DNA of 44,418 nucleotides. Source: Bacteroidaceae bacterium (GTDB lineage Bacteria; Bacteroidota; Bacteroidia; Bacteroidales; Bacteroidaceae). Below, piece by piece: positions 1 through 44,418 of the stretch. The stretch's first letter is position 1. Every line of letters begins with the position of its first letter. The notes under the pieces were generated by a model. The model was given only the letters and a program-made list of their open reading frames with translations. It did no database searches and was not told the origin of the DNA. The stretch is taken from positions 1-44,418 of the forward strand of contig JAGCYL010000005.1 of the NCBI GenBank assembly GCA_017960825.1, read 5' to 3'. The translations under genes and the position numbers were made by a program.

Positions 1-509
1 GGGAAATGAACTTCTACAATTGAATTCTTTGTTATTGTTAATTCTTTATATGCTTTCAAATATACTCCATTGCGAAGCTCAACTAAAAGAACATATTTTC
101 CTCCAGATTTAGGTATTCCGTAAAGAGAAGAGAGACTATTCCAATATATCGAGTAGACAGAATAGCCTTTGCCTTCATTTACGAGTAGATCTCCATCTGA
201 TTTTGTGCCATACTTAGAAACTGGAGTCATATATTTACTCTCCCGATTATATGTATAACTAATTAAAGGCGTCCAGTCTAAAGTTGTGTATGGCTTCATA
301 CTTTTTATCTTATCCACGTAACCATCAACATAAAACAGATAGACATTTCCATTTGGAGCAGTAATGTCTTTACTGTATACTCTCACTTGAATATAATCCA
401 AGGAAGATTTTTCTTTGTCGTCATCATCACTGTTGCACGACATAAAACCTACACTCAGCATCGCGACCATGATGATGGTTTGCATGCTCCACAAAAACTT
501 TTTTCTCAT
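1..509 (-). CDS. hypothetical lipoprotein (N-terminal ~169 codons; 3' end lies outside the window)
   Basis: My own minus-strand translation from the ATG at 509 gives MRKKFLWSMQTIIMVAMLSVGFMSCNSDDDDKEKSSLDYIQVRVYSKDITAPNG... The frame stays open to position 1. It has a signal peptide plus a lipobox-like Cys. It is absent from the ORF track because it runs off the edge. Confidence 0.5.
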   Translation of the reverse strand, partial: MRKKFLWSMQTIIMVAMLSVGFMSCNSDDDDKEKSSLDYIQVRVYSKDITAPNGNVYLFYVDGYVDKIKSMKPYTTLDWTPLISYTYNRESKYMTPVSKYGTKSDGDLLVNEGKGYSVYSIYWNSLSSLYGIPKSGGKYVLLVELRNGVYLKAYKELTITKNSIVEVHF

Positions 510-605
510 ACAATTATAAATTAAAGTTAGACAATAAATTGACTTTCGTTCACCTGTGAAAAGTCGTGCAAACTTTAGTAAATAAAGAAGCGCAGACCCA
601 CCATA

Positions 606-726
606 CCTCTGCAAGGTCTACCACAACCTCATACGTACTATGGAAAAGTCTACGCTATATGCGCATACTCATCGTACGTATGTTTTGCTCTTGCTATCCT
701 TTGTTGAGGTGGTAGTTCTGCAGAGG
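606..726. repeat. long imperfect inverted repeat (extended hairpin) in the intergenic region
   Basis: Complementary blocks are CCTCTGCA(606-613)/TGCAGAGG(719-726), CTACCA(618-623)/TGGTAG(710-715), CCTCA(627-631)/TGAGG(705-709) and CATACGTAC(630-638)/GTACGTATG(674-682). Confidence 0.6.
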
Positions 727-767
727 AAATTGAGCAAATAAATTGTGTTTCTTGTGGAAACACGCTG

Positions 768-775
768 CAAAGATA
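768..775 (-). promoter_or_regulatory. candidate -7 promoter box TATCTTTG (minus strand), reading toward the lipoprotein gene at 509
   Basis: Plus strand reads CAAAGATA, which matches the Bacteroides TAnnTTTG consensus and is followed by CAGCG as at other promoters in this window. It implies a ~250-nt 5' UTR containing the 606-726 hairpin. Confidence 0.35.
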
Positions 776-877
776 GGAAATAATGTTTGTTCTGCAATGA
801 AAACGAGAAAGAAAATTTATCTCACGCAAAATAAAGCAGTAGGATTGAAGAGCTGAAGGATTGAAGTTAGCTCTTTC

Positions 878-968
878 TTTTTCTCACCAGAAAAAACAAA
901 TTTTTTCTTTTTTTGAAGAAAAACTCCACTTTTTTCCCGCAAAAAGTACAGCTTTTACCCAAGAAAAG
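878..968. repeat. four consecutive A/T mini-hairpins (T-run / A-run dyads)
   Basis: The dyads are TTTTTCT-cacc-AGAAAAA (878-895), TTTTTCT..AGAAAAA (902-923), CTTTTT..AAAAAG (929-946) and CTTTT..AAAAG (952-968). Their centres are spaced about 22-26 bp apart. Confidence 0.55.
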
Positions 969-1045
969 GGAGCCATATAGTAAAACAATGAGTTCTTGAC
1001 CACAAAACCTGTGCTCGTCTTCACAAAGTGCGTGCTCATTCCTGC

Positions 1046-1213
1046 GAGAGTGCGCTAAGATTTCACGAGAGTGCGCTAAGTTTTCGCGAGAGCGCTCTAA
1101 GATTTCATGAGAGCGCTCTAAGATTTCATGAGAGCGCTCTAAGTTTTCGCGAGAGCGCTTTAAGATTTTGTGAGAACACTTTAAGTTTGCGTAAGGTCGC
1201 GTCTAGATTTTGT
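1046..1213 (+). repeat. tandem array A: 8 contiguous units of 21 bp, no spacers
   Basis: The units are GAGAGTGCGCTAAGATTTCAC, GAGAGTGCGCTAAGTTTTCGC, GAGAGCGCTCTAAGATTTCAT (x2), GAGAGCGCTCTAAGTTTTCGC, GAGAGCGCTTTAAGATTTTGT, GAGAACACTTTAAGTTTGCGT and AAGGTCGCGTCTAGATTTTGT. The core AGAGCGCTCT is a 10-bp palindrome. Confidence 0.92.
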
Positions 1214-1416
1214 GGAATAGCAAAGAAATTCCGCGCAAGCAAACCTACCCTTCTTATACTTGATAGGATACGCGTGAACAGTTATGTGAATTTCGAAAAA
1301 GGACAGCTTGCTTCCTCACTCCTCCTTTTCTCTTTATTTTACATCGTTTTTGCGCCTATACACGCGCGTTAGACAGTTTTTGGGAATGATTTGTGGCCTA
1401 TACCACACTTTTTTAT

Positions 1417-1424
1417 TACTTTTG
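1417..1424 (+). promoter_or_regulatory. candidate -7 box TACTTTTG for leuS
   Basis: Exact TAnnTTTG match 34 nt upstream of the leuS ATG. Confidence 0.4.
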
Positions 1425-1457
1425 CCTTTTGATCTTTCAAACTCTAAACTTAATCTG

Positions 1458-4295
1458 ATGGACTATAACTTTCAGGATATTGAAAAGAAATGGCAACAAC
1501 GGTGGAGGGAACGCAAGACCTACCGCGTTGTCGAGGACGAGAACAAAAAGAAGTTCTATGTGCTGAATATGTTTCCCTACCCCAGTGGCGCAGGATTGCA
1601 CGTGGGGCATCCGCTGGGCTACATAGCAAGCGATATCTATGCACGCTATAAGAGGCAGAAGGGATTTAATGTGCTGAACCCCATGGGCTACGATGCCTAC
1701 GGTCTGCCGGCTGAGCAGTATGCCATTCAGACTGGTCAGCACCCCGAGAAGACTACATTCCAAAATATTGACCGCTACCGTGAGCAACTGGACAAGATAG
1801 GTTTTTCCTTTGACTGGGATCGCGAGGTGCGCACCTGCTCTCCCGACTATTATCACTGGACTCAGTGGGCCTTCGAGAAGATGTATGACTCCTTCTTCTG
1901 CAACAAATGCCAGAAAGCACAGCCAATAGAGAAACTTATTGAGTACCTCAACGCCAATGGCACTGCGGGCCTCGATGCTGCTCAGACAGAGCAGCTTGAC
2001 ATCACTGCCCAAGAGTGGCAGCAGATGGACGCGCGTCAGCAGAGCGATGTGCTGATGAACTATCGCATCGCTTTCCTTGGCGAGACAATGGTGAACTGGT
2101 GCCCCAAACTGGGCACTGTGCTGGCCAACGACGAGGTGGTGGACGGTGTGAGTGTGCGTGGTGGCTTCCCTGTGGAGCAGAAGAAGATGCGCCAGTGGTG
2201 TCTGCGTGTCAGCGCATACGCCCAGCGTCTGCTCGACGGTCTCGACACTATCGAATGGAGCGAGTCAATCAAGGAGACTCAGCGCAACTGGATTGGCCGT
2301 TCAGAGGGTGCCGAAGTGGAGTTTAAGGTAGCCGACAGCGACTTAGCTTTCACCATCTTCACCACTCGCGCTGACACGATGTTTGGCGTCACCTTCATGG
2401 TGCTGGCTCCCGAGAGCGAACTGGTGCAGAAAGTTACCACCGATGCCCAACGCGAGGAGGTAGAGAAATATCTGGCTTACGTGAAAGGCCGCACCGAGAG
2501 GGAGCGCCAGATTGACCACAAGATAACGGGTGTCTTCTCCGGCAGCTACGCCATCAACCCCTTCACTGGCGAGAAGAATCCTATCTGGATAAGCGAATAT
2601 GTGCTGGCCGGCTACGGCACAGGTGCCATCATGGCAGTGCCTGCCCACGACAGTCGTGACTATGCCTTTGCCAAGCACTTCGGCCTGCCCATCGTGCCTC
2701 TGATTGAAGGCGCGGACGTGAGCGAGGAGAGCTACGATGCCAAGGAGGGCATTGTGTGCAACTCACCGGCAGAGGGCAAGGACCCCTACTGCGACCTGGT
2801 GCTCAATGGACTGACGGTGAAGGAGGCTATCCAAGCTACCAAGGAGTTTGTAGAGAAGCAGAAGCTGGGCCGCGTGAAGGTCAACTATCGCCTACGCGAC
2901 GCCATCTTCAGCCGCCAGCGCTACTGGGGCGAGCCGTTTCCCGTGTACTACAAGGACGGTGTGCCGCAGATGATTCCCGAAGACTGCCTGCCGCTGATGC
3001 TGCCTGAGGTTGAAAACTTCCTACCCACCGAGACAGGTGAGCCGCCTCTCGGCAACGCACAGATTTGGGCATGGGATGAGACGCAGCGCAAAGTGGTGGA
3101 CAAAGCTCTCATTGACAATAAAACCATATTCCCCATCGAGCTATACACTATGCCGGGCTTTGCAGGCTCGTCGGCCTACTATCTCCGCTACATGGACCCC
3201 CACAACGACAAGGCCCTGGTGGACAAGAAGGTGGATGAGTACTGGCAGAACGTGGATTTATATGTGGGCGGTTCGGAGCATGCCACCGGCCATCTGATTT
3301 ACAGCCGATTCTGGAACAAATTCCTCTATGACTACGGCTACAGCTGCAAGGAGGAGCCTTTCCAGAAACTTATCAATCAAGGCATGATCCAGGGACGCAG
3401 CAATTTTGTCTATAGAATCAAAGACAGCAACACTTTCGTCTCCTATGGACTGAAGGACAAATACGACACCACTCCCATCCACGTGGATGTGAACATAGTC
3501 AGCAACGACGTGCTCGATATTGAGGCGTTCAAGGCCTGGAGGCCAGAATATGCCGACGCGCAGTTTGAGCTGGAGAACGGCAACTATATCTGCGGATGGG
3601 CTGTGGAGAAGATGTCGAAGAGTATGTTCAACGTGGTGAACCCCGATTACATCGTGGAGCGCTACGGTGCCGACACACTGAGGCTCTATGAAATGTTTCT
3701 CGGTCCTATCAGCCAGTCGAAGCCCTGGGACAGCAACGGTATTGACGGATGCTTCCGATTCCTGCGCAAGGTGTGGGGACTCTTCTACAGTCGCGACGGA
3801 CAGCTGCTGCCTACTGACAGCGAGCCCTCGAAGGATAGCCTGAAGAGCATACACAAACTGATACAGAAGGTGAGCCAAGACATCGAGAACTTCTCCTACA
3901 AAACTGCTATCAGTGCATTCATGATATGCGTAGGCGAGTTGGCACAGCAGAAATGCACCTCCAAGGCTGTGCTGGAGCCGCTCGTTGAACTGCTTGCACC
4001 CTTTGCTCCTCATCTGTGCGAAGAATTGTGGGAAGTGCTGGGGCATAAGGACAGCGTGTGTGATGCGCCGTGGCCGGAAGTCAACGAAGAATACCTGAAA
4101 GAAGATACTGAAACACTGAGCATATCCTTCAATGGCAAAACGCGCTTCACTATGGACTTTGCGCCCGATGCCAGCAAAGAGGACATTGAGAAAACTGTGA
4201 TGGAGGCCGACTCAACTGCCCGCTATACCGACGGCAAGCAGATAGTAAAGGTCATCGTCGTGCCCCACCGTATCGTGAATATAGTATTGAAATAA
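1458..4295 (+). CDS. leuS: leucine--tRNA ligase
   Basis: ORF 1308..4295. The conserved N-terminus [16 protein letters not shown] starts at M51 (ATG 1458). Class I HIGH-type motif (HVGHPLGY) and KMSKS are present, and the ~945-aa length is typical. Confidence 0.97.
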
Positions 4296-4321
4296 AACCG
4301 CTGACCGAACCCTGACTTACC

Positions 4322-5212
4322 ATGGACTTAATGAAACCACAATTTCGCCACATTGCCCACGACATCAGCCTGATGTCGATAGGTATAATAATGTATGCCA
4401 TCGGATTTACGCTTTTCCAACTTCCGTACCATATCACTCCTGGCGCAACGACCGGTTTGGCTGCCATCGTCTTCTACGTTTGCGGCCTTCCCGTAACGGT
4501 CACTTATTTCCTTATCAACATTGTGCTGCTGATTGTTGCCCTCAAGATTCTGGGCTTCAAGTTTATGACCAACACCATCTACGGCATTGCCTTCATGACC
4601 TTTGTGCTGTGGGCCATTCCCGCATGGTTTGGCGATGAACACGGTATGCTGCCTCAGGTGCTGGGCGAGCAGGACATGTTTATGGCCTGCATCATCGGTG
4701 CCATCATTGAGGGTATCGGTCTGGGCTTGGTGTTCATGGGCAACGGCAGCACCGGTGGCACCGACATCGTGGGTGCCGTGGTCAATCACTACCGCGACAT
4801 CAGCATCGGACAGGGCATCATGATTGCCGACCTGCTCATCATCTCCAGCAGCTTTTTGGTTTTCCACGAGGTGAGACTACTCATCTACGGTTACTGCACT
4901 CTGTTCATAGAGGTCATGATGATTGACTATGTTATGAACCGCGACCGCCAGTCAGTACAGTTCTTTATCTTTTCTGAGAAATATGATGAGATTGCCGCCG
5001 AGATTGCCAAGACGGGGCGCGGGGTCACCGTGCTCGACGGGCAGGGCTGGTACACCAAGCAAAACCATAAGGTGCTCGTGGTGCTGGCCCGACGCAGGGA
5101 GAGTCCGTTTATCTTCCGGGTCATCAAGACCATCGACCCCAAGGCCTTCGTCTCTCAAAGCAAGGTGGTGGGTGTGTTCGGCAACGGTTTCGACCGCATC
5201 AAGGGTAAGTAA
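4322..5212 (+). CDS. YitT family membrane protein (DUF2179 C-terminal domain)
   Basis: 296 aa with several TM helices and a soluble C-terminal domain typical of the YitT family. Confidence 0.8.
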   Translation: MDLMKPQFRHIAHDISLMSIGIIMYAIGFTLFQLPYHITPGATTGLAAIVFYVCGLPVTVTYFLINIVLLIVALKILGFKFMTNTIYGIAFMTFVLWAIPAWFGDEHGMLPQVLGEQDMFMACIIGAIIEGIGLGLVFMGNGSTGGTDIVGAVVNHYRDISIGQGIMIADLLIISSSFLVFHEVRLLIYGYCTLFIEVMMIDYVMNRDRQSVQFFIFSEKYDEIAAEIAKTGRGVTVLDGQGWYTKQNHKVLVVLARRRESPFIFRVIKTIDPKAFVSQSKVVGVFGNGFDRIKGK

Positions 5213-5252
5213 AATAAACAGCTCCTTCGCGCGTTATATATAAAATAGGTGT

Positions 5253-5834
5253 ATGAACAAAATCGTCTTTGCCACTAACAACGAGCATAAACTGCGTGAG
5301 ATTCGTGCCATTATCCACGACGGTACCGAGGTCTTAAGCCTCGCCGACATTGGCTGCCACGCCGATATCCCCGAGACTGCCGACACCCTTGAGGGCAACG
5401 CCCTGATAAAGGCGCACTATGTCTATGACAACTACGGCTATGACTGCTTTGCCGACGACACGGGACTGGAGGTAGAGGCTCTGGGCGGTGCCCCGGGCGT
5501 ACACACCGCACGCTATGCCGGCGATGACCAGGACTCGCAGGCCAATATGCGCAAGCTGCTTCTCGAGATGAGGGATGCCACCAATCGCAACGCCCGGTTC
5601 CGCACTGCCATAGCCCTGATTCTAAATGGCGGGGAGCACCTGTTCAGCGGCGAAGTGCGCGGCACCATCACCACCAAGCCATTGGGCACAAAAGGATTCG
5701 GCTACGACCCCGTATTCATTCCGGAAGACACAGGCAAGACCTTTGCGCAGCTGGGCGAGGATATTAAAAACCATATCAGCCATCGGGCCCGCGCCGTTAC
5801 CAAACTGATAGAATTCCTTCATAAAAACACCTGA
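5253..5834 (+). CDS. rdgB: non-canonical purine NTP pyrophosphatase (RdgB/HAM1 family)
   Basis: 193 aa. ATNNxHKLxEI, [18 protein letters not shown] and GFGYDP(V/I)F motifs are present. Confidence 0.9.
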
Positions 5835-5846
5835 TTACCTTTAATT

Positions 5847-8162
5847 ATGAGAAAAAGCATAGTCCTTCTGACCTTGGCCATTGCCCTCCCGCTCCTCGGC
5901 AGTGCCAGCGACTGGAAGTCGTATATCTCCTATCATAACGTCACTAGATGTCTGCCCGTAGATGGCAAAGTGTATGCCATCGGCTCCGGTGGCCTGTTCC
6001 GCTACACTTTTGGCAGCGACAAGGCTCAGACCTATAGCAAATCGACAGGACTGAGCAGCACCGACATCACCCACATAGCATACTGCGAAGACCTCGACCA
6101 GCTTCTGCTGGTCTATAAGGATTACAACATAGACATCCTTGACGTACACGACAGCATCATCAATATCCCGCAGTACAAAAACTCCTCCTACACCGACAAG
6201 ACCATCAACGATGTCACCATAAACGGCTCCACCGCCTATCTGGCCACAACCTTCGGCATCGTGGAAATCAACCTGCGCAAAGCCGAATACACCAACGCTT
6301 ACGAGACAGGCGTTCCCGTGCGATGCGCCATGGGCGACAAAGACAATATCTATGCCCTCGGCCCCGACGGCATCTATGCCGGCAACAGAAAAACCAACCT
6401 GCTCGACAAGACCAACTGGAGCAAGAAGAGCAACAGCTATATGCACAGGCTCATCGCCTTCAACGACAGCATCTTCGCCTTCAACAACAAAAACGGACTC
6501 TACTCCTTCAACACCACCACCTGCCAGACCGACAGGATATGCGAAGGCACCTTCACCCATTGCTCCACCTACGGAGAGGAAATCGTGCTGAGCAATGCCA
6601 CCACCGTCCTCACCATGGATGCCAAGCGCCATATCTCCACATACGCCTTAGACAATGACTTTCAAGACGTTGGCAGTGACGGCACCCATCTCTGGGCAGC
6701 GCGCGGCGACCTTGGCCTGCAAGCCTACATCGTCAGTGCCGACAGTCTCGGCAATGACAGTCTGATAGCAGCCGGAGGCAGCATCATTCCCAACAGCCCC
6801 CGGCGCAACTACTTCAACGACCTGCACCTCACCGACGACAACCGTCTGCTGGTGGCAGGCGGCGCCCTCAACTATAGCGGACAGACCTACTTTGAAGGAA
6901 CCCTGATGATTTTTGAGAACGGCAGCTGGTTTAACTTCAGCGAAGACAGCATCGCCATCAAGACCGATGCGCAGTATTCCAACATGACCTCGCTGGCACA
7001 GGACCCGAAGGACAAAAACCATCACTTTGCCTCCTCAGCCACCGCCGGACTCTATGAATACCGCAACGGCATCTTTGTCAATCTCTACAACAACGACAAC
7101 AGCCCTATCACTAGCATCTATCCCAAAAGGTCAAACTACAAAGTCTATAATCGCCTCTGTGGAGCCAAATATGATAACAAGGGCAATCTCTGGGTCTTCA
7201 ACAACCAAGTGGACACCATCATCCGCGTTATGAAGCCCGATATGACATGGGAGAGCTTCTACTTCCCTGAGATAAAGGCCTACCCAACCTTCGACCACTA
7301 TCTCTTTGACAGCCGTGGCTGGGTGTGGATGACTCACAGGCGCTGGGCAGGAGCAAACCTGGCAGGCATCGCATGCCTCAACTACAACAACACACTCTCC
7401 AGCAAAGGCGATGATAAATTTGCCTTCTGCACCACCTTCACCGACCAGAACGGCACCACTACGCAAATCAGTCTCCTCTACCATATCGCCTTCGACCGCA
7501 ACGGACAACTGTGGGTAGGCACAGACCAAGGAGTCTTTGTGCTGGAGAACCCTGCTACAATATTCGATAACAAGCAGACATTCCGCCGACCGCTCATCCC
7601 ACGTAACGATGGCACAAACTATGCCGACTACCTGCTCGATGGCGTACCTGTAAAGTGTATCGCAGTGGATGGCGCCAACCGCAAATGGCTGGGCACTACC
7701 AACAACGGCCTGTATCTCGTTTCAGAAGACGGGTTGCAGATAATAGAACACTTCACTGCTGACAACTCGCCGCTCCTGTCCGACTGTATCTTGTCGCTCG
7801 CACTGCGTCCTGACAACGGACTGCTGCTGATAGGCACCGACAAAGGCCTTGTCACATATCGCGGTGATGCCACCGAACCAACAGAAAAACTCAGCAAAAA
7901 CAATGTGAAGGTCTTCCCTAATCCTGTGAGACCCACATTCAACGGACAAATTCGCATCACAGGTCTCACGGCAGACAGCGATGTCAAGATAACCTCCACC
8001 AGCGGCCTGCTCATAGCACAGGGCACATCGCTCGGCGGCACCTTCGTATGGAATGGGCGCGACAAGGCAGGCGACCGTGTCTCCACTGGAGTCTATCATG
8101 TCATTGCCTCCGATGCAGAGGGCAAAAACGGCGTCGTAGCCAAGATACTTGTTGTGAAATAA
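5847..8162 (+). CDS. beta-propeller (two-component regulator propeller-like) protein with T9SS C-terminal sorting domain; PorZ-like
   Basis: 771 aa with a signal peptide, repeated propeller-type segments and a C-terminal ~80 aa (VKVFPNPV...GVYHVIASD...AKILVVK) typical of a Por secretion tail. Size and architecture match PorZ. The assignment is by architecture only. Confidence 0.6.
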   Translation: MRKSIVLLTLAIALPLLGSASDWKSYISYHNVTRCLPVDGKVYAIGSGGLFRYTFGSDKAQTYSKSTGLSSTDITHIAYCEDLDQLLLVYKDYNIDILDVHDSIINIPQYKNSSYTDKTINDVTINGSTAYLATTFGIVEINLRKAEYTNAYETGVPVRCAMGDKDNIYALGPDGIYAGNRKTNLLDKTNWSKKSNSYMHRLIAFNDSIFAFNNKNGLYSFNTTTCQTDRICEGTFTHCSTYGEEIVLSNATTVLTMDAKRHISTYALDNDFQDVGSDGTHLWAARGDLGLQAYIVSADSLGNDSLIAAGGSIIPNSPRRNYFNDLHLTDDNRLLVAGGALNYSGQTYFEGTLMIFENGSWFNFSEDSIAIKTDAQYSNMTSLAQDPKDKNHHFASSATAGLYEYRNGIFVNLYNNDNSPITSIYPKRSNYKVYNRLCGAKYDNKGNLWVFNNQVDTIIRVMKPDMTWESFYFPEIKAYPTFDHYLFDSRGWVWMTHRRWAGANLAGIACLNYNNTLSSKGDDKFAFCTTFTDQNGTTTQISLLYHIAFDRNGQLWVGTDQGVFVLENPATIFDNKQTFRRPLIPRNDGTNYADYLLDGVPVKCIAVDGANRKWLGTTNNGLYLVSEDGLQIIEHFTADNSPLLSDCILSLALRPDNGLLLIGTDKGLVTYRGDATEPTEKLSKNNVKVFPNPVRPTFNGQIRITGLTADSDVKITSTSGLLIAQGTSLGGTFVWNGRDKAGDRVSTGVYHVIASDAEGKNGVVAKILVVK

Positions 8163-10646: not shown

Positions 10647-10661
10647 AGAGTCTTAGTTATT

Positions 10662-10683
10662 ATGTTCAATCTTCAATGTTCAA
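10662..10683 (-). repeat. 1.5 copies of the 14-nt TTGAACAT[T/G]GAAGA repeat, 16 nt upstream of the nadA start
   Basis: Plus strand reads ATGTTCAATCTTCAATGTTCAA, the reverse complement of TTGAACATTGAAGA-TTGAACAT. The same unit occurs at 14304-14420. Confidence 0.6.
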
Positions 10684-13747: not shown

Positions 13748-14386
13748 CTACAACTGACCGCTCTCTACCTTGCGCACTATCTTCTCTATCTCGCGGTCTT
13801 CGCCCTCAGGGTCATAATGCTTGCGCAAATTATTACCAAACAATGTACTGAGCACATTATACATGTTCGCCCTCACGGGGCCCAGAAATGCTTTTATCAT
13901 CTCAAAACTCGTCTGACCGCACTCGCGGTCTATCAGCTTTACCAGCAGCTTGCCCTGCGTCTTGGTTATCTTGCGCACCGTGGGCTCGTACTGCTTCCGT
14001 ATGCCGCGCTCCACTGCCTTGATATGCCGTTTCTTTTCCTTCTTGTCCTCCAGCGTCTCCAGATAGTCGTGGGTCTCTATGAGTATCTGGCGCGTCAGCT
14101 TGGCGTAAGGAAAGACATAGCGCACGTCGCGCACGAGTTTGTCGTACTTCTGTCGCTCTTTCTCGTTCTTGAATGTCTTTGGCGCTGTCTTGTAGAACTC
14201 ATGGAGTGTCATGTTGGGTATGCTGTCGCCCTGATACCACGCACGGTCTATCTTTACATACATAGCCACCTGGATGGTGTCGTCGGCCTGAGCCTTCAAT
14301 TCATTGAACATGGAAGATTGAACATTGAAGATTAGGAACAGCAAAAGGCACCGCCAGATTTGAAATATATATTGAACATTGAACAT
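13748..14386 (-). CDS. DUF4294 domain protein
   Basis: ORF 13748..14407. The C-terminal two thirds match the DUF4294 pattern as I remember it (RDVRYVFPYAKL..., KLIDRECGQTSFE). The start is uncertain: M1 at 14407, M8 at 14386 or M33 at 14311. M8 gives a signal-peptide-like N-terminus, and that N-terminus is encoded by the 14-nt repeats. Confidence 0.7.
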   Translation of the reverse strand: MFNVQYIFQIWRCLLLFLIFNVQSSMFNELKAQADDTIQVAMYVKIDRAWYQGDSIPNMTLHEFYKTAPKTFKNEKERQKYDKLVRDVRYVFPYAKLTRQILIETHDYLETLEDKKEKKRHIKAVERGIRKQYEPTVRKITKTQGKLLVKLIDRECGQTSFEMIKAFLGPVRANMYNVLSTLFGNNLRKHYDPEGEDREIEKIVRKVESGQL

Positions 14387-14420
14387 GGAAGATTGAACAT
14401 TATACATCTTACATTATACA
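14304..14420 (+). repeat. two blocks of 14-nt tandem repeats TTGAACAT[G/T]GAAGA (14304-14340 and 14372-14420)
   Basis: Block 1 is TTGAACATGGAAGA TTGAACATTGAAGA TTAGGAACA. Block 2 is TTGAACA TTGAACATGGAAGA TTGAACATTATACA TCTTACATTATACA. Confidence 0.8.
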
Positions 14421-14538: not shown

Positions 14539-15066
14539 ATGCACAAACTGTCTGTTCTGGATATGAATCGCCTGAGCGCAGAAGAGTTCCGCCTGGCGAA
14601 GAAGGTTCCCCTTGTTATTGTGCTCGACAATGTAAGGAGCATGTATAACGTAGGTTCTGTTTTGCGCACCGCCGACGGCTTCCGCATTGAGAAGGTGTGT
14701 ATGTGCGGCATCACGGGGACTCCGCCTCATCAGGAGATTCACAAGACGGCTCTGGGGGCTGAAGACTGCGTGAACTGGGCTTACTACAAGAATACTGTAG
14801 ACTGCATCAATGACTTGCGCAAAGAGGGTTTTGTCATTGTTGCGCTGGAACAGGTGGAAGGAAGTAAAAATATGATGGATTGGGAAGACAGGCGTCCCAT
14901 GGCTATTATTGTGGGCAATGAGGTAAAGGGTGTGGCACAGGAAGTGGTAGACGCTGCCGACTACTGTCTGGAAATTCCGCAGATTGGTACCAAGCATTCT
15001 TTTAACGTTGCATGCGCTACTGCCATGGTTATGTGGGAATACTATAAGAGTTTTAATTACCCTTAA
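14539..15066 (+). CDS. TrmH/SpoU family RNA 2'-O-methyltransferase
   Basis: ORF 14464..15066. The conserved start MHKLSVLDMNRLSAEEF is at ATG 14539. SpoU motifs are present (VLDNVRSMYNVGSVLRTADGF, IVGNEVKGV, SFNVA). Confidence 0.85.
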   Translation: MHKLSVLDMNRLSAEEFRLAKKVPLVIVLDNVRSMYNVGSVLRTADGFRIEKVCMCGITGTPPHQEIHKTALGAEDCVNWAYYKNTVDCINDLRKEGFVIVALEQVEGSKNMMDWEDRRPMAIIVGNEVKGVAQEVVDAADYCLEIPQIGTKHSFNVACATAMVMWEYYKSFNYP

Positions 15067-15628
15067 CTGCAAAAAATAGCAGTTGATAATATTGCTTTTT
15101 GCTGTTGATAACTTGTGGAATTTGTTGTGAAATAATGCCAGTATAAAATCTTTATATTTTTCCACCATAATTCACATTATTTTTCTCCATTTCCTTCTAT
15201 GTTTTCAACATTCATTTTTATCAATTTCATAAATGAGATATTTTTTTGCTATTGCTTGTCTCTCTTGTTAACAGAAACTTTTTTGGTATTTTTAGGATAT
15301 GATAAATCAATCTTTTATGTTTTCAATACCTTGTGTATAAATTGTTGATAAAAATAGTGATTTTGTGAAAGGAATATTTATTATTTCGCGAATAAAAAAT
15401 TATAAACATTTTCCACAGCTATACATCAACAAACAGACAGACAAATAAAAAAAAAGTTTATATTTTTTTGAGAAGTAGTTAGTATTGATTTTTGCTGTGG
15501 AAAATAAAAGAAATATTTTTTTTATATAAATAATGCTTTTTTTGTTCTTTTTTGTTTGGAAATTCAATTATTAGTTTTAATTTTGGAGCAAATTTGAATT
15601 TTTGTTAAACTTTTAAATTATTAGAATT
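15067..15628. other. AT-rich gene-free region with a DnaA-box cluster; candidate chromosomal replication origin (oriC)
   Basis: Three boxes match TTWTNCACA exactly: 15332-15340 (TGTGTATAA, minus-strand sense TTATACACA), 15409-15417 (TTTTCCACA) and 15496-15504 (TGTGGAAAA, minus-strand sense TTTTCCACA). One-mismatch boxes lie at 15103-15111, 15126-15134, 15158-15166, 15168-15176 and 15343-15351. Long A/T tracts run at 15440-15470 and 15505-15560. Confidence 0.5.
15578..15585 (+). promoter_or_regulatory. candidate -7 box TAATTTTG for the zinc-ribbon gene
   Basis: Exact TAnnTTTG match 44 nt upstream of ATG 15629. Confidence 0.4.
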
Positions 15629-16375
15629 ATGGCTTTTTGTTCAAAATGTGGTCAGCAAATTGCTGACGGAGTAACAGTATGCCCATTCTGTGGCGAACCC
15701 ATTGAGGCAGCTCCTGCTGCAGCTCCCAGGACTCCGGTCTATGACAATGCACCTGAGCAGCTTGACTTCATTCCGAGTGCTGCTTCTGCTGCATTCCCGA
15801 AGTTTGCTTACATCGGTATTGCCGGTGCGGTGTTAGCTTTGATTGTTTCTTTCTTTAATGTATTTGAAACACCTAGACTTTACTACTTCCTTTATGCAGT
15901 AGCTGCAGCATGTTCAGCAGTTGCAATGTTCAAGGTTTATGATGGTCTGAAGAAAGGTCTTGCCGGTCACAGGAAACCGATGCCCGGTTTGATTACTACT
16001 ACAGCATGGTTCCAGGTAGCAGGTCAGGCACTTATGGTATTAGGTGGTCTGATTGTAATCCTTGCAGGTCTTGACGGTGTTGCAACAGCAGCAGGTATCA
16101 TAGTATTTGCAGGAGTTATAAATTTTGTATATCTGATTCTGATGCTTATTGTAGCCTTCACTTTGATAGGAAGCTACACAGGTAATGTAAAGACCTTCGG
16201 ATGGTTGCTGGTTATCCCTGTAATCTTCGGTATTATTGCAGCTATTGGTGGTGGTGCAGCAGCATTGTCAGGTGGCAAGGTAGGCGTGATTACTATAATC
16301 ATTGCAGTAATAAGCTGCGCAATCAGTGTTTACATCTATCTGTTTGCCAAGAAGATTATCAGCGACGGGAAATAA
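15629..16375 (+). CDS. zinc-ribbon domain multi-pass membrane protein (hypothetical)
   Basis: 248 aa. The N-terminal CxxC..CxxC (MAFCSKCGQQIADGVTVCPFCGEPI) is followed by about 6 hydrophobic helices. Confidence 0.75.
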   Translation: MAFCSKCGQQIADGVTVCPFCGEPIEAAPAAAPRTPVYDNAPEQLDFIPSAASAAFPKFAYIGIAGAVLALIVSFFNVFETPRLYYFLYAVAAACSAVAMFKVYDGLKKGLAGHRKPMPGLITTTAWFQVAGQALMVLGGLIVILAGLDGVATAAGIIVFAGVINFVYLILMLIVAFTLIGSYTGNVKTFGWLLVIPVIFGIIAAIGGGAAALSGGKVGVITIIIAVISCAISVYIYLFAKKIISDGK

Positions 16376-16410
16376 TAAATTATTAACTATATAAATAAAA
16401 GAAAAAAGAG

Positions 16411-16956
16411 ATGAAAAAATTATCTGTATTTATGTTGGCTGCCCTAATGGGCGTGTTTATGGTATCTTGCTCTAATGGCGACAGCCCTGCAGCAAAAGCC
16501 AAGGAGATTTTTGAAAGCGTAAAGGACAAGTTGGCTACTATGCCTAAGGATGAGCTGAAGGCCAAGACTCTTGAGTTTGGCGAGGTTATCAAGCCGATTA
16601 TGACTAAGTCGATGGAGATTGCCAAGAAGCTGATGAGCGATGAAAACTTCACTCTCGACAAGGTGGCTGACGAGTATAAGAAGATTGGCGTAGATCCTTC
16701 TGACGTACAGGATGTAAGCAAGCTCGTAGAGGACTTTACTGCAGAGGTACAGAAGAATCCGGCATGGACCGAACTTCAGGCAGATCCCGAATTCGGCAAG
16801 CAGTGGATGCAGGCTATCGGTTTTGCTGACGAGGCAACCGATGAGGCAGAGGACACTGTTGGCGAGGCTGTAGAAGATGCTGCAAATGCAGTAGGTGATG
16901 CAGTTGAAGGTGCAGCAGAAGAGGTAGCTGACGCAGTAAAAGAGGTAGTAGAATAA
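16411..16956 (+). CDS. acidic helical lipoprotein (hypothetical), paralog 1
   Basis: 181 aa with signal peptide plus lipobox (LMGVFMVSCSNG). The C-terminus DAVEGAAEEVADAVKEVVE is identical to that of the next gene. Confidence 0.75.
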   Translation: MKKLSVFMLAALMGVFMVSCSNGDSPAAKAKEIFESVKDKLATMPKDELKAKTLEFGEVIKPIMTKSMEIAKKLMSDENFTLDKVADEYKKIGVDPSDVQDVSKLVEDFTAEVQKNPAWTELQADPEFGKQWMQAIGFADEATDEAEDTVGEAVEDAANAVGDAVEGAAEEVADAVKEVVE

Positions 16957-16980
16957 TAAATACTACATTGAAAATAATAA

Positions 16981-17082: not shown

Positions 17083-17145
17083 TAGCCGATTTGAGTGAAA
17101 TCAAATCACAGAAACCTATATTATCAACCTTTAAATTATTAAGAG

Positions 17146-17667
17146 ATGAAAAAATTATTTGTAGTAGTAATGATTGCTCTGATGGGCGTGTTTGCTGCCA
17201 GTTGTTCAGGTGGCGGAGGTATTGAAAAGGCTAAGCAGATTGTGCAGGAGCTGAAGGACAAGGGTGCTAACATGAATGTGGAAGACCTTAAGGCAAAGCT
17301 GACCGAGTTTGCAGAAGCTCTCAAGCCTGTGATGGCTAAGATTACTGAGGTAACCAAGAAGATTGAGGGTGAATCAGATCCTTCTAAGGCTATGGACATG
17401 GTAAATGAGTTGAAGGAGCTTGGTGCTGAGGACATTGACGCTCTTATGAGTGGCATGGAAGATGCATGTAAGGATATCCCTGCATGGAAGGAACTGGAGA
17501 AAGACAAGGATTTCCAGCAGAATTTCTTGACGACTCTCGGTATGGATGCTTCTAATTTTACTGAGCAGGCAACCGAAGCAGTAGAAGACGCAGCTGAGGA
17601 TGTATCTGACGCAGTAGAGGGTGCAGCTGAGGAAGTTGCTGACGCAGTAAAAGAGGTAGTAGAATAA
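17146..17667 (+). CDS. acidic helical lipoprotein (hypothetical), paralog 2
   Basis: 173 aa with signal peptide plus lipobox (LMGVFAASCSGG). It is colinear with 16411..16956, and the last ~35 nt including the stop are identical. Confidence 0.75.
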   Translation: MKKLFVVVMIALMGVFAASCSGGGGIEKAKQIVQELKDKGANMNVEDLKAKLTEFAEALKPVMAKITEVTKKIEGESDPSKAMDMVNELKELGAEDIDALMSGMEDACKDIPAWKELEKDKDFQQNFLTTLGMDASNFTEQATEAVEDAAEDVSDAVEGAAEEVADAVKEVVE

Positions 17668-17694
17668 TATCATTTTGCTAACGAATAAAAGACA

Positions 17695-25486: not shown

Positions 25487-25595
25487 GTAAATTTTTACCC
25501 TCTTTATGAAATTCTCTCCAAATGTAAAATAACTGAGAATTCTATGTCTGTCATAATCTTTAATGGAAGTAGCGATCAGTAACAAGCTTCCCGCA

Positions 25596-25638
25596 GAAAT
25601 AGCAGGGAAATTCCGCGAAGGAGTTTCCCTGCTATTTC
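25596..25638 (+). terminator. perfect 15-bp stem hairpin (possible terminator)
   Basis: GAAATAGCAGGGAAA (25596-25610) pairs with TTTCCCTGCTATTTC (25624-25638) across a 13-nt loop. The downstream U-run is weak. Confidence 0.5.
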
Positions 25639-25787
25639 TTATGAAAAAAATTATTTTCGATTCTTCCTCCATACTTCCATAATCCAGTGGAAAATTAATG
25701 TTCATCAGCATTTGCAGTGTGAAAGCAATGGTGGAAGACATGGAGGCAAATGCCCGAAAAAGACAGATAGCAGCAAAAAAATCATTA

Positions 25788-29118: not shown

Positions 29119-29250
29119 CACATTAACGCAGACCTCGCAAAAATTAATGCGGACTTCGTCACAAACTAACGCTGACGGTGTGAAATTTAATGCTGACTTC
29201 GTGGAATTTAAAGCTGACGGCGCTCAGCCCTAACGCGTCAGACCTTTCAA
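29119..29250 (-). repeat. tandem array C: 6 degenerate units with a 21-22-bp period
   Basis: The core TAA[C/T/A]GC[A/G/T]G(A/T)C recurs at 29124, 29145, 29167, 29188, 29209 and 29231. The reverse complement of the units (for example CACGAAGTCAGCATTAAATTTC) loosely resembles array A/B units. Confidence 0.7.
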
Positions 29251-29341: not shown

Positions 29342-29349
29342 TATTTTTG
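29342..29349 (+). promoter_or_regulatory. candidate -7 box TATTTTTG for ychF
   Basis: Exact TAnnTTTG(CA) match 34 nt upstream of ATG 29383. Confidence 0.4.
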
Positions 29350-43350: not shown

Positions 43351-43743
43351 TTACTCAAATATAGCATTCAGCTCAGGCGAGTCACCGAGTTTTCCGTTGA
43401 CACGGGCCACGGTTTCCACCTTGCCTCGCACACACAGCTTCTCGTCGGGCAGACGGTAGATATCCTGCTGGAACACATACTTCGGCCCTTCCTTATACAC
43501 ATTCAGGCAACTCACAAAATCCTTGTCAGGAGTGAGTGGCTCCTTGAACTGCACAGTCACGCGGGCAACCACAGCATCTACTCCCTTCTTGTGCAGCTCG
43601 ATGAAACTGATGCCCTTGCTCAGCAGAAACTGGTGGCGGGTGTGCTCCATATAGTGCAGATAGTTGGCATTGTTGACGATGCCCTCTATATCGCACTCAT
43701 AGTCGCGCACCGTCATCTGGAGTTTGTAAACATAGTCTTTCAT
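43351..43743 (-). CDS. acyl-CoA thioesterase (hotdog fold, YbgC/4HBT family)
   Basis: ORF 43351..43860. The conserved start MKDYVYKLQMTVRDYECDIEGIVNNANYLHYME is at ATG 43743. Confidence 0.85.
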   Translation of the reverse strand: MKDYVYKLQMTVRDYECDIEGIVNNANYLHYMEHTRHQFLLSKGISFIELHKKGVDAVVARVTVQFKEPLTPDKDFVSCLNVYKEGPKYVFQQDIYRLPDEKLCVRGKVETVARVNGKLGDSPELNAIFE

Positions 43744-43963: not shown

Positions 43964-44089
43964 GAGAGTGCTTTAAGATTTCACGAGAGTGCTCTAAGAT
44001 TTCACGAGAGTGCTCTATGATTTTGTAAGAGCGCTCTAAGATTTTGTAAGAGCGCTTTTAGATTGCGTAAGGTCGCGTTTAGATTCAGA
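43964..44089 (+). repeat. tandem array B: 6 contiguous units of 21 bp, same family and orientation as array A
   Basis: The units are GAGAGTGCTTTAAGATTTCAC, GAGAGTGCTCTAAGATTTCAC, GAGAGTGCTCTATGATTTTGT, AAGAGCGCTCTAAGATTTTGT, AAGAGCGCTTTTAGATTGCGT and AAGGTCGCGTTTAGATTCAGA. The degenerate tail (GCGT AAGGTCGCGTnTAGATT) is the same as in array A. Confidence 0.92.
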
Positions 44090-44198
44090 AAATGCGCTGT
44101 TAGGCTAATTCTTCACAGCCTTCACTTATCTATGAGGTTGTCAATGTGAATCGCCTGAAAGCATATAATGAAGATATTCAAACTATCGCGGCCCAACA

Positions 44199-44418
44199 TC
44201 AGATGACCCGTGAGATTGTAAAGGGATTCGACTCGAAACTCTTTATCACCCTTCTTTGTATGGTTCTACCAAGCACATCCACCAACTGCCGCAGTTCGCC
44301 AATCTGCTCATGGCGCAACCGCTCGTTTACAGCATAACCTTTGACAAGATACTCCTTCAATACCCTGTTGGCCCACTGGCGGAACTGAACGCCCCGTTTG
44401 CTCTTCACGCGATACCCC
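44199..44418 (-). pseudogene. RhuM-family (virulence protein RhuM-like) gene fragment; N-terminus outside window, C-terminal part missing
   Basis: The minus-strand frame is open to the window edge and reads GYRVKSKRGVQFRQWANRVLKEYLVKGYAVNERL..., the conserved RhuM core. It stops about 45 aa later, whereas family members as I recall them continue for more than 100 aa. Confidence 0.5.

Follow-up and report, generated by a model that had tools for sequence, protein, structure and literature searches.

The array of eight 21-bp units that lies upstream of leuS (array A) in the 44,418-nt stretch of Bacteroidaceae DNA analyzed here (hereinafter, the window) is probably one copy of a dispersed, lineage-restricted and non-coding intergenic minisatellite, which would have been copied as a block and kept by slippage or unequal exchange, and which resembles the BrickBuilt repeat of Porphyromonas gingivalis; on this reading, it is not a control element specific to this locus. 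Several lines of evidence led us to favor the minisatellite: the block-wise paralogy of array A and a second array (array B), with a homology ending exactly at the array edges; the signs of local duplication (the identity of units 3 and 4, a 63-bp period and array-specific variants); the intergenic position of all the copies, beside functionally unrelated genes; and the absence of the array from the orthologous leuS upstream regions both of 80 relatives and of sister lineages whose LeuS is 88-93% identical. To these we add the breaking of three assemblies (L199, L200 and L201) at arrays, as expected of multi-copy repeats, the restriction of the family recognized by a profile built on all the units (F1) to rumen Bacteroidaceae contigs, the enrichment of arrays with a period of 20-24 in Prevotellaceae/Bacteroidaceae, and the existence of a described analogue, BrickBuilt, within the same order.

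Array A is a real and non-random structure. When the sequence is laid out in register, the eight units follow one another at exactly 21 bp without spacers; TRF assigned them a score of 171 at period 21 (88% matches) and of 204 at period 63, and the unit consensus, allowing up to three mismatches, matched eight times in the window versus 0.00 times expected from 100 shuffles. The eight head-to-tail units and the strict, spacer-free 21-bp geometry that a previous inspection of the letters alone (the sequence-only reading) had described were thus borne out, as was the decay of the units toward the 3' end: from unit 1 to unit 8, the identities to the consensus GAGAGCGCTCTAAGATTTCAC are 19, 17, 20, 20, 19, 17, 14 and 11 of 21. 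Units 3 and 4 have the same sequence, the last two (7-8) are degenerate, and units 1-3 resemble units 4-6, which corresponds to a higher-order period of 63 bp. The perfect 10-bp palindrome that had been regarded as the core of the unit does exist, as AGAGCGCTCT, but only in three of the eight units of array A; in units 1-2 it is replaced by AGAGTGCGCT, and of the 14 units in the window as a whole four contain a perfect dyad, the fourth of these lying in array B at 44028. The features of the array, of its surroundings and of the other two arrays are listed in Table 1. A sequence similar to the small hairpin at the 3' edge of array A is also embedded in a palindrome with 20-nt arms at 25595-25639.

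Table 1. Coordinates of the arrays and of the adjacent features in the window.
Feature	Coordinates	Strand	Remarks
Lipoprotein-type gene, AT-rich, 5' part	1..509	-	Signal peptide + Cys; ATG at 509; runs off the window start; left neighbor of array A
Exact -7 box of the lipoprotein-type gene	775-768	-	TAnnTTTG match
Candidate "unit 0", AAAGTGCGTGCTCATTCCTGC	1025..1045	+	Badly degenerate; by-eye reading at the 5' edge of array A, without statistical support
Array A	1046..1213	+	Eight 21-bp units, head-to-tail; consensus GAGAGCGCTCTAAGATTTCAC
Perfect AGAGCGCTCT palindromes of array A	1089-1098, 1110-1119, 1131-1140		Three of eight units
Small hairpin GGAATAGCAAAGAAATTCC	1214..1232	+	Directly 3' of array A
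Exact Bacteroidetes -7 box TACTTTTG of leuS	1417..1424	+	204 bp downstream of array A
leuS (leucyl-tRNA synthetase)	1458..4295	+	Right neighbor of array A
Array C	29122..29226	+	Five ~21-bp units of a second family (ATTAAYGCNGACYTCG...)
4HBT-family thioesterase gene	43351..43743	-	Start faces array B; -7 box at 43772-43765
Array B	43964..44089	+	Six 21-bp units, array A family, colinear with array A units 3-8
Seventh, very degenerate unit of array B	44090-44110	+	Directly after array B
RhuM-family gene, 3' end	44199..44418	-	Stop 44199-44201; right neighbor of array B

Array A is embedded in a divergent gap of 948 bp between the lipoprotein-type gene and leuS, more than 200 bp away from the -7 box on either side. 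The promoter candidates that the sequence-only reading had placed at 768-775 and 1417-1424 proved to be exact Bacteroidetes -7 boxes (TAnnTTTG), but the stretch between them, which had been described as promoter-free, is not wholly devoid of such boxes: two further exact matches occur at 1182-1189 (plus strand, inside unit 7) and at 1247-1240 (minus strand). These extra boxes may be due to chance, since the density of TAnnTTTG over the window is about one box per kb. The idea that successive units might compose a promoter (TTTG ... TAnnTTTG) was rejected, because the spacing of 11 nt is wrong and the box is absent in array B.

Array B, retrieved by both TRF and the repeat finder, lies 43 kb from array A and on the same strand. 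The two arrays can be aligned without gaps, with 86% identity over 125 nt and 16-19 of 21 identical positions in each pair of units. The terminal units A8 and B6 have 17 of 21 bases in common, although the identity of each to the family consensus is just 11 of 21. Both arrays close with a common terminal unit (AAGGTCGCGTYTAGATT), and their degenerate end units correspond. At the array edges, the homology ends, and the flanks have no leader, tail or inverted ends in common. On the basis of this unit-for-unit correspondence, which includes the degenerate end units while the flanks are unrelated, the two arrays appear to have been copied as a block. Each array has its own variants (GCGC in A3-6, GTGC in B1-3), and such variants together with matching decayed edges are the usual signature of a block copying followed by internal homogenization. 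Array C is located between a terminator and the promoter of ychF, upstream of this gene. That its family might be a reverse-complement relative of the array A one is no more than a weak idea: the F1 profile matches these arrays on the minus strand only, and with E = 0.13-8.8, while the result of a test based on the register did not go beyond the extreme of the random distribution.

Array B is situated where core genes border on an island, and array A between leuS and the AT-rich lipoprotein gene. The border position of array B is based on contig L198 (positions 1-6501), in which the RhuM gene beyond array B is directly followed by genes for Vsr, HNH_2, an uncharacterized protein of 381 aa and a HATPase_c_3 protein of 760 aa; this block has the look of a defense or restriction-type island. 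The remaining genes of the window are housekeeping ones (yitT, ham1, porZ, tyrS, nadA, dapB, signal peptidase, ychF, lgt, mnmG, uvrC, dtd, deoC, polA, dprA and fucosidase); no transposase, Rep, Par or regulator genes were found in the 44 kb, nor were tRNA genes or Rfam families. Two other repetitive features of the window were observed. A tandem gene duplication gave two paralogous small genes of 181 and 173 aa (16406-16958 and 17141-17669), which encode similar signal peptides, contain Ala/Glu/Asp-rich 33-bp coding repeats and show an apolipophorin-like weak match. Two clusters of ATTGAAC/GATTGAA heptamer-type repeats occur at 14295-14404 (versus 0.01 expected), with an inverted partner at 10658-10683 and further copies at 841-866; L218 (upstream of leuS) and L212 contain similar heptamer runs, and these repeats may represent a short regulatory motif.

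By its LeuS protein, the window belongs to uncultured Prevotellaceae/Bacteroidaceae: the best match among species representatives is at 86% identity, the nearest protein clusters are at 93, 92, 89 and 88%, and an exact look-up retrieved no record of this LeuS. The contigs of the same species come from ruminant-type metagenomes, and in the two or three close strains that were compared for each array the number of units is kept, with one SNP each (array A in L195, array B in L198, array C in L215/L216). In the more divergent strain L200, the second unit of array B differs and the contig ends inside the array; L199, L200 and L201 all break inside or beside an array. The array A unit was found in none of the loci of 80 LeuS relatives, and no array was found upstream of leuS in the sister lineages with 88-93% LeuS identity, where this position is occupied by aroQ and a methyltransferase gene, or by ham1/porZ in inverted order. 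Based on these other upstream genes and on the lack of the array there, array A is species-specific and sited at a point of rearrangement. In the empty-site comparison for array A, the leuS-upstream genes of the relatives differ and provide no alignable intergenic DNA, so that insertion boundaries are not definable. Solitary sequences are present upstream of leuS in L217 (about 2440-2457; TAAGGTCGCGC, inverted), similar to an array end unit, and in L219 (about 3150-3220; ATTAACGCGGAACTTAGCG), similar to an array C unit; they may be decayed remnants, on the strength of a post-hoc match of 10 nt only. Six MAGs whose records are titled Lactococcus, Opitutae, Oribacterium, Waltera, Dysosmobacter and Paratractidigestivibacter (L012, L013, L028, L030, L055 and L085) carry LeuS proteins 72-86% identical to the Bacteroidales protein of the window, and these bins are evidently mislabelled or contaminated.

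The scanning of 185k species genomes, the JGI metagenomes and IMG/VR with the exact and the degenerate unit yielded single chance matches only, with the exception of L212, L189 and possibly L002, and no match to the family was obtained in 72,556 plasmids, 50,697 phages and IMG/VR. Three related lineages were retrieved by different approaches: a search with the array translation led to a spurious ORF overlapping a related array in L196/L197; a degenerate junction pattern led to L212, a Bacteroidaceae MAG from goat rumen whose array separates lpxC/fabZ from lpxA; and the F1 profile added L189, a yak-rumen MAG (E = 4e-5), all its family matches falling in these rumen Bacteroidaceae contigs (L196/L197, L212 and L189). 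The related units of the three lineages occupy unrelated and non-orthologous intergenic sites. Overall, every copy of the array is intergenic and the neighbors are unrelated in function (leuS, the thioesterase/RhuM pair, ychF, lpxA, toxin-antitoxin cassettes), one more of them being presumably a glycosyltransferase-like gene. The flanks of the window arrays have no significant similarity to L196 or L212, and a leader (TTTTCCCGCAA) that by eye seemed common to the window and L212 was dropped at E = 0.25. These searches, the lack of an Rfam match and the failure to find a paper describing the unit support the statement of the sequence-only reading that this is not a described repeat family. That the arrays are absent from, or lie elsewhere in, the relatives weakens a regulatory or origin function, as that reading had anticipated, but the loss of a conserved core that it had coupled with this is not what we found.

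In both L196 and L212, the arrays are composites in which array C-type 21-mers are followed by inverted 22-mers (CTCGGCGGAGAT...) and then by GAGAGCGCGCTAAGAT-type 21-mers; the units of the array A family correspond to the right part of these composites and there directly adjoin the array C family. A composite block of 103 nt is duplicated in L196 (96% identity, 2.3 kb apart), and head-to-head arrangements of arrays are present in L189, L196 and L212. A search in protein space with the composite ORF P0002 found only itself. The comparison of 25 units from four lineages revealed A2, C8 and T11-A12-A13-G14-A15-T16-T17 as the best-conserved positions, so the part conserved throughout the family is the asymmetric CTAAGATT segment (C..TAAGATT) and not the palindrome, whose partner positions pair at 0-4 of 5 places outside the window. 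L196 also contains three copies (103-159, 861-917 and 3362-3418) of a GC-rich 57-nt hairpin element (CTGCCGCCGATACAC...GTGCACCGGCGGCAG) placed between toxin-antitoxin gene pairs (HEPN/MNT, Gp49/HTH), a layout reminiscent of cassette-separating recombination sites or of terminators.

Arrays of this size are not limited to a single family. The TRF analysis of the loci of the 80 relatives (797 kb) revealed a bump of arrays with a period of 20-24 (n = 18), mostly of 3-6 units, many of which contain a short palindrome and whose sequence varies by species; seven of the 18 lie 147-854 bp upstream of leuS. As the control flanks from other phyla (761 kb) contained four such arrays (binomial p = 0.003), they are enriched in Prevotellaceae/Bacteroidaceae, but not exclusive to them. 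The loci with 20-23-bp arrays of their own (L018, L020, L025, L039, L056, L058, L062, L063, L065, L070, L083 and L091) have lineage-specific and often palindromic units, in several cases just upstream of leuS; in some of them (L039, L058, L062 and L063) the units occur in both orientations, in a BIME-like manner.

The closest described system is BrickBuilt, a minisatellite/MITE of P. gingivalis made up of spacer-less 23-nt units in 19 imperfect intergenic copies (Klein et al. 2015, PMC4596501), which is restricted to its species, absent from Rfam and had been taken for hypothetical ORFs in annotations. Its leader and tail segments carry IS5-like inverted ends but, as in the window, copies consisting of the array alone also occur (3 of 19); it showed bidirectional promoter activity in a reporter assay and is transcribed at some loci; its copy number varies among strains, its arrays reach up to 22.8 units, and one copy (BrickBuilt_12) lies beside leuS (PMC4596501). 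The window arrays are likewise spacer-less (8, 6 and 5 units of 21 bp) and consist of tandem units of about 22 nt (23 nt in BrickBuilt, 21 nt here) in a member of the Bacteroidales; they form dispersed, imperfect and non-identical intergenic copies, A and B being 43 kb apart in the 44-kb window, at tens to hundreds of bp from genes; they are confined to one or a few close lineages, absent from Rfam and called as spurious hypothetical ORFs, and here too one copy is adjacent to leuS. Unlike BrickBuilt, they lack a conserved leader or tail (the L196/L212 arrays are flanked by other repeat modules) and IS5-like terminal inverted repeats (TIRs), the unit is shorter and of a different sequence, and the A-family arrays have 6-8 units versus up to 22.8. 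The IS5-like TIR consensus (GAGACCTTTGCA type) has four matches in the window versus 4.5 expected, none near an array. Classical VNTR/minisatellite loci, such as those used in MLVA typing, are single-locus. The window arrays share with them the intergenic tandem repeat, the degenerate edge units and the internal homogenization, and differ in the block-wise dispersal of one array over several loci and lineages and in the constant unit number of the close strains compared. A CRISPR array was rejected, since the repeats have no spacers and no cas genes are present among the annotated neighbors.

As for the mechanism, a block of a few units might occasionally be copied into a new intergenic site, possibly through recombination or gene conversion between arrays, or through mobilization in trans by some recombinase. 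The array would then grow and be homogenized internally by replication slippage or unequal exchange, whereas the edge units, escaping homogenization, would decay. Around the window arrays we found neither transposition machinery nor inverted ends nor target duplications, so the dispersal step is entirely one that we infer. Any effect on leuS or on the divergent lipoprotein gene would be incidental, for instance through altered DNA bending, supercoiling or stray promoter-like boxes, of the kind reported for BrickBuilt in P. gingivalis. The lack of such machinery runs counter to the minisatellite, as do the constancy of the unit number in the two or three close strains per array, and the exact 21-bp period kept in four lineages and two unit families together with the conservation of CTAAGATT, which might be a mark of selection for the binding of a protein and not of neutral repeat dynamics.

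The main live alternative, suggested by the strict 21-bp period and by CTAAGATT, is that the units, each spanning two helical turns, form a phased array exposing on one face of the helix sites for the cooperative binding of a putative protein with a regulatory, insulating or nucleoid-architectural function, in line with the cooperative sites of the sequence-only reading; we consider it unlikely, albeit worthy of attention. It would account for the exact period, which is the same in all the family arrays of four lineages and in the second family, for the high information content of positions 8 and 11-17 (C..TAAGATT) across lineages, and, at several loci, for the presence of an exact TAnnTTTG box some 40-200 bp downstream of the array; moreover, enterobacterial REP/BIME repeats are reported to bind IHF and gyrase. 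It fits less well with the lack of conservation of the palindrome, which makes the binding of a dimer to the dyad unlikely, with the absence of a regulator gene beside any array, with the unrelated functions of the neighboring genes, with sister lineages that run leuS without the array, with the distance of more than 200 bp between array A and both flanking -7 boxes, and with the orientation of arrays A and B to the nearest gene start, which is not the same. The comparison with iterons or with cooperative dimer sites made by the sequence-only reading is not supported, in view of the asymmetric conserved part of units in which the dyad is perfect in 4 of 14 cases, the recurrence of the array 43 kb away beside unrelated genes and at non-orthologous sites elsewhere, the sister lineages devoid of it, and the lack of an adjoining rep or regulator gene, of DnaA boxes and of an AT-rich unwinding element. 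A replication-origin iteron set or a plasmid-type partition centromere is hardly credible and is contradicted on every feature tested: the likeness to plasmid iterons and ParR-type centromeres is in form only (intergenic and helically phased direct repeats of about 20 bp in tandem), while no rep, par or dnaA genes were found nearby, nor a DnaA-box cluster or AT-rich unwinding element beside the arrays, the copies are multiple and chromosomal (two family arrays and a third of the second 21-bp family within 44 kb), and the plasmid, phage and IMG/VR collections gave no match. The DnaA-box-like motifs nearest to array A form a cluster about 14 kb away (15.3-15.5 kb), isolated matches occurring at 29345 (about 120 bp from array C) and at 43493 (about 470 bp from array B), and a better oriC candidate exists at 15.06-15.63 kb. 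The latter, possibly the chromosomal origin, is an intergenic gap of 570 bp (15060-15630), rich in AT (about 32% GC), with the DnaA-box-like TTTTCCACA at 15409 and inverted copies at 15332 and 15496, and with a 29-nt inverted repeat (15391-15419/15494-15522); it adjoins the minimum of the cumulative GC skew at about 13-14 kb and is separated by about 14 kb from array A and from array C. A further idea, that of a restriction site, was discarded, as AGCGCT and GCGC are not avoided outside the arrays (7 observed versus 10 expected and 215 versus 208, respectively).

The arrays might also act as RNA, either within a small RNA or within a leader or antisense transcript in which the cores of neighboring units would pair into nested stems. 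The predicted folds do contain nested stems formed by pairing between the AGAGCGCTCT cores of different units, exact -7 boxes are available at 1182-1189 (+) and 1247-1240 (-), and transcription of BrickBuilt arrays has been described for some loci (PMC4596501), but the folding z-scores are weak (-1.9, -1.2 and -2.2 versus dinucleotide shuffles), no Rfam match was found, no terminator-like site was found in or after the arrays, and the -7 box of unit 7 is absent from array B and has no properly spaced -33 TTTG. The L196 and L212 composites fold far more stably than their mononucleotide shuffles do (z = -6.5 and -4.2), and L189 and the window arrays showed no convincing extra structure; with z only between -1.2 and -2.2 the idea of a structured RNA was rejected, and we regard a transcribed non-coding RNA as quite improbable. 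The probability is lower still for palindromic repeats of the REP/BIME type mobilized by a RAYT (IS200/IS605-like) transposase. REPs are imperfect stem-loops (stem of 5-13 bp, loop of 2-20) with a GTAG or CGTC tag, found mainly as head-to-head or tail-to-tail dimers and rarely head-to-tail, and they have been proposed to act in supercoiling or in protein binding (Di Nocera et al. 2013, PMC3733652). Like them, our repeats are short, extragenic, partly palindromic, clustered and lineage- or species-specific, four relatives (L039, L058, L062 and L063) mix orientations like BIMEs, and head-to-head arrays occur in L189, L196 and L212; unlike them, arrays A, B and C are strictly head-to-tail, the array A-family unit contains a 10-bp dyad without a loop, not a stem-loop, and carries no GTAG/CGTC tag, and no RAYT (Y1 transposase) gene was found in the 44-kb window or in the strain contigs. 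The chance that array A belongs to a true protein-coding gene with ESALRFH heptad repeats is practically negligible. An open frame of 114 codons (1028-1372) does span the array, but it starts with GTG, has no Pfam family and, among 5.8 billion proteins, has as relatives only the same locus in another strain and the spurious ORF over another array; the equivalent frame of array B is broken by a TGA in unit B3. Hence, the sequence-only reading was right in considering this ORF just the translation of the array. Finally, somewhat bolder, and in our opinion rather improbable, is the hypothesis that both 21-bp families constitute a TIR-less mobile repeat system spread horizontally among rumen Bacteroidaceae, the two-turn-phased units of which would be read by a conserved putative DNA-binding or recombination protein that disperses the blocks, with an architectural or insulating role at intergenic or island borders. 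Arrays A and B are both located where conserved genes give way to lineage-specific DNA.

If the dispersed minisatellite is the correct explanation, then array A belongs to ordinary repeat biology, and it would account for the spurious "hypothetical protein" calls with ESALRFH heptads and for the contig breaks in rumen Prevotellaceae MAGs; at the same time, the arrays are potential markers for strain typing. The analysis further shows that BrickBuilt-like, spacer-less arrays of about 21-23 bp are not confined to Porphyromonas, being enriched throughout the intergenic DNA of Prevotellaceae/Bacteroidaceae with lineage-specific units. The finding would matter more if the 21-bp phasing and CTAAGATT marked a protein-binding array or a new type of TIR-less mobile repeat.
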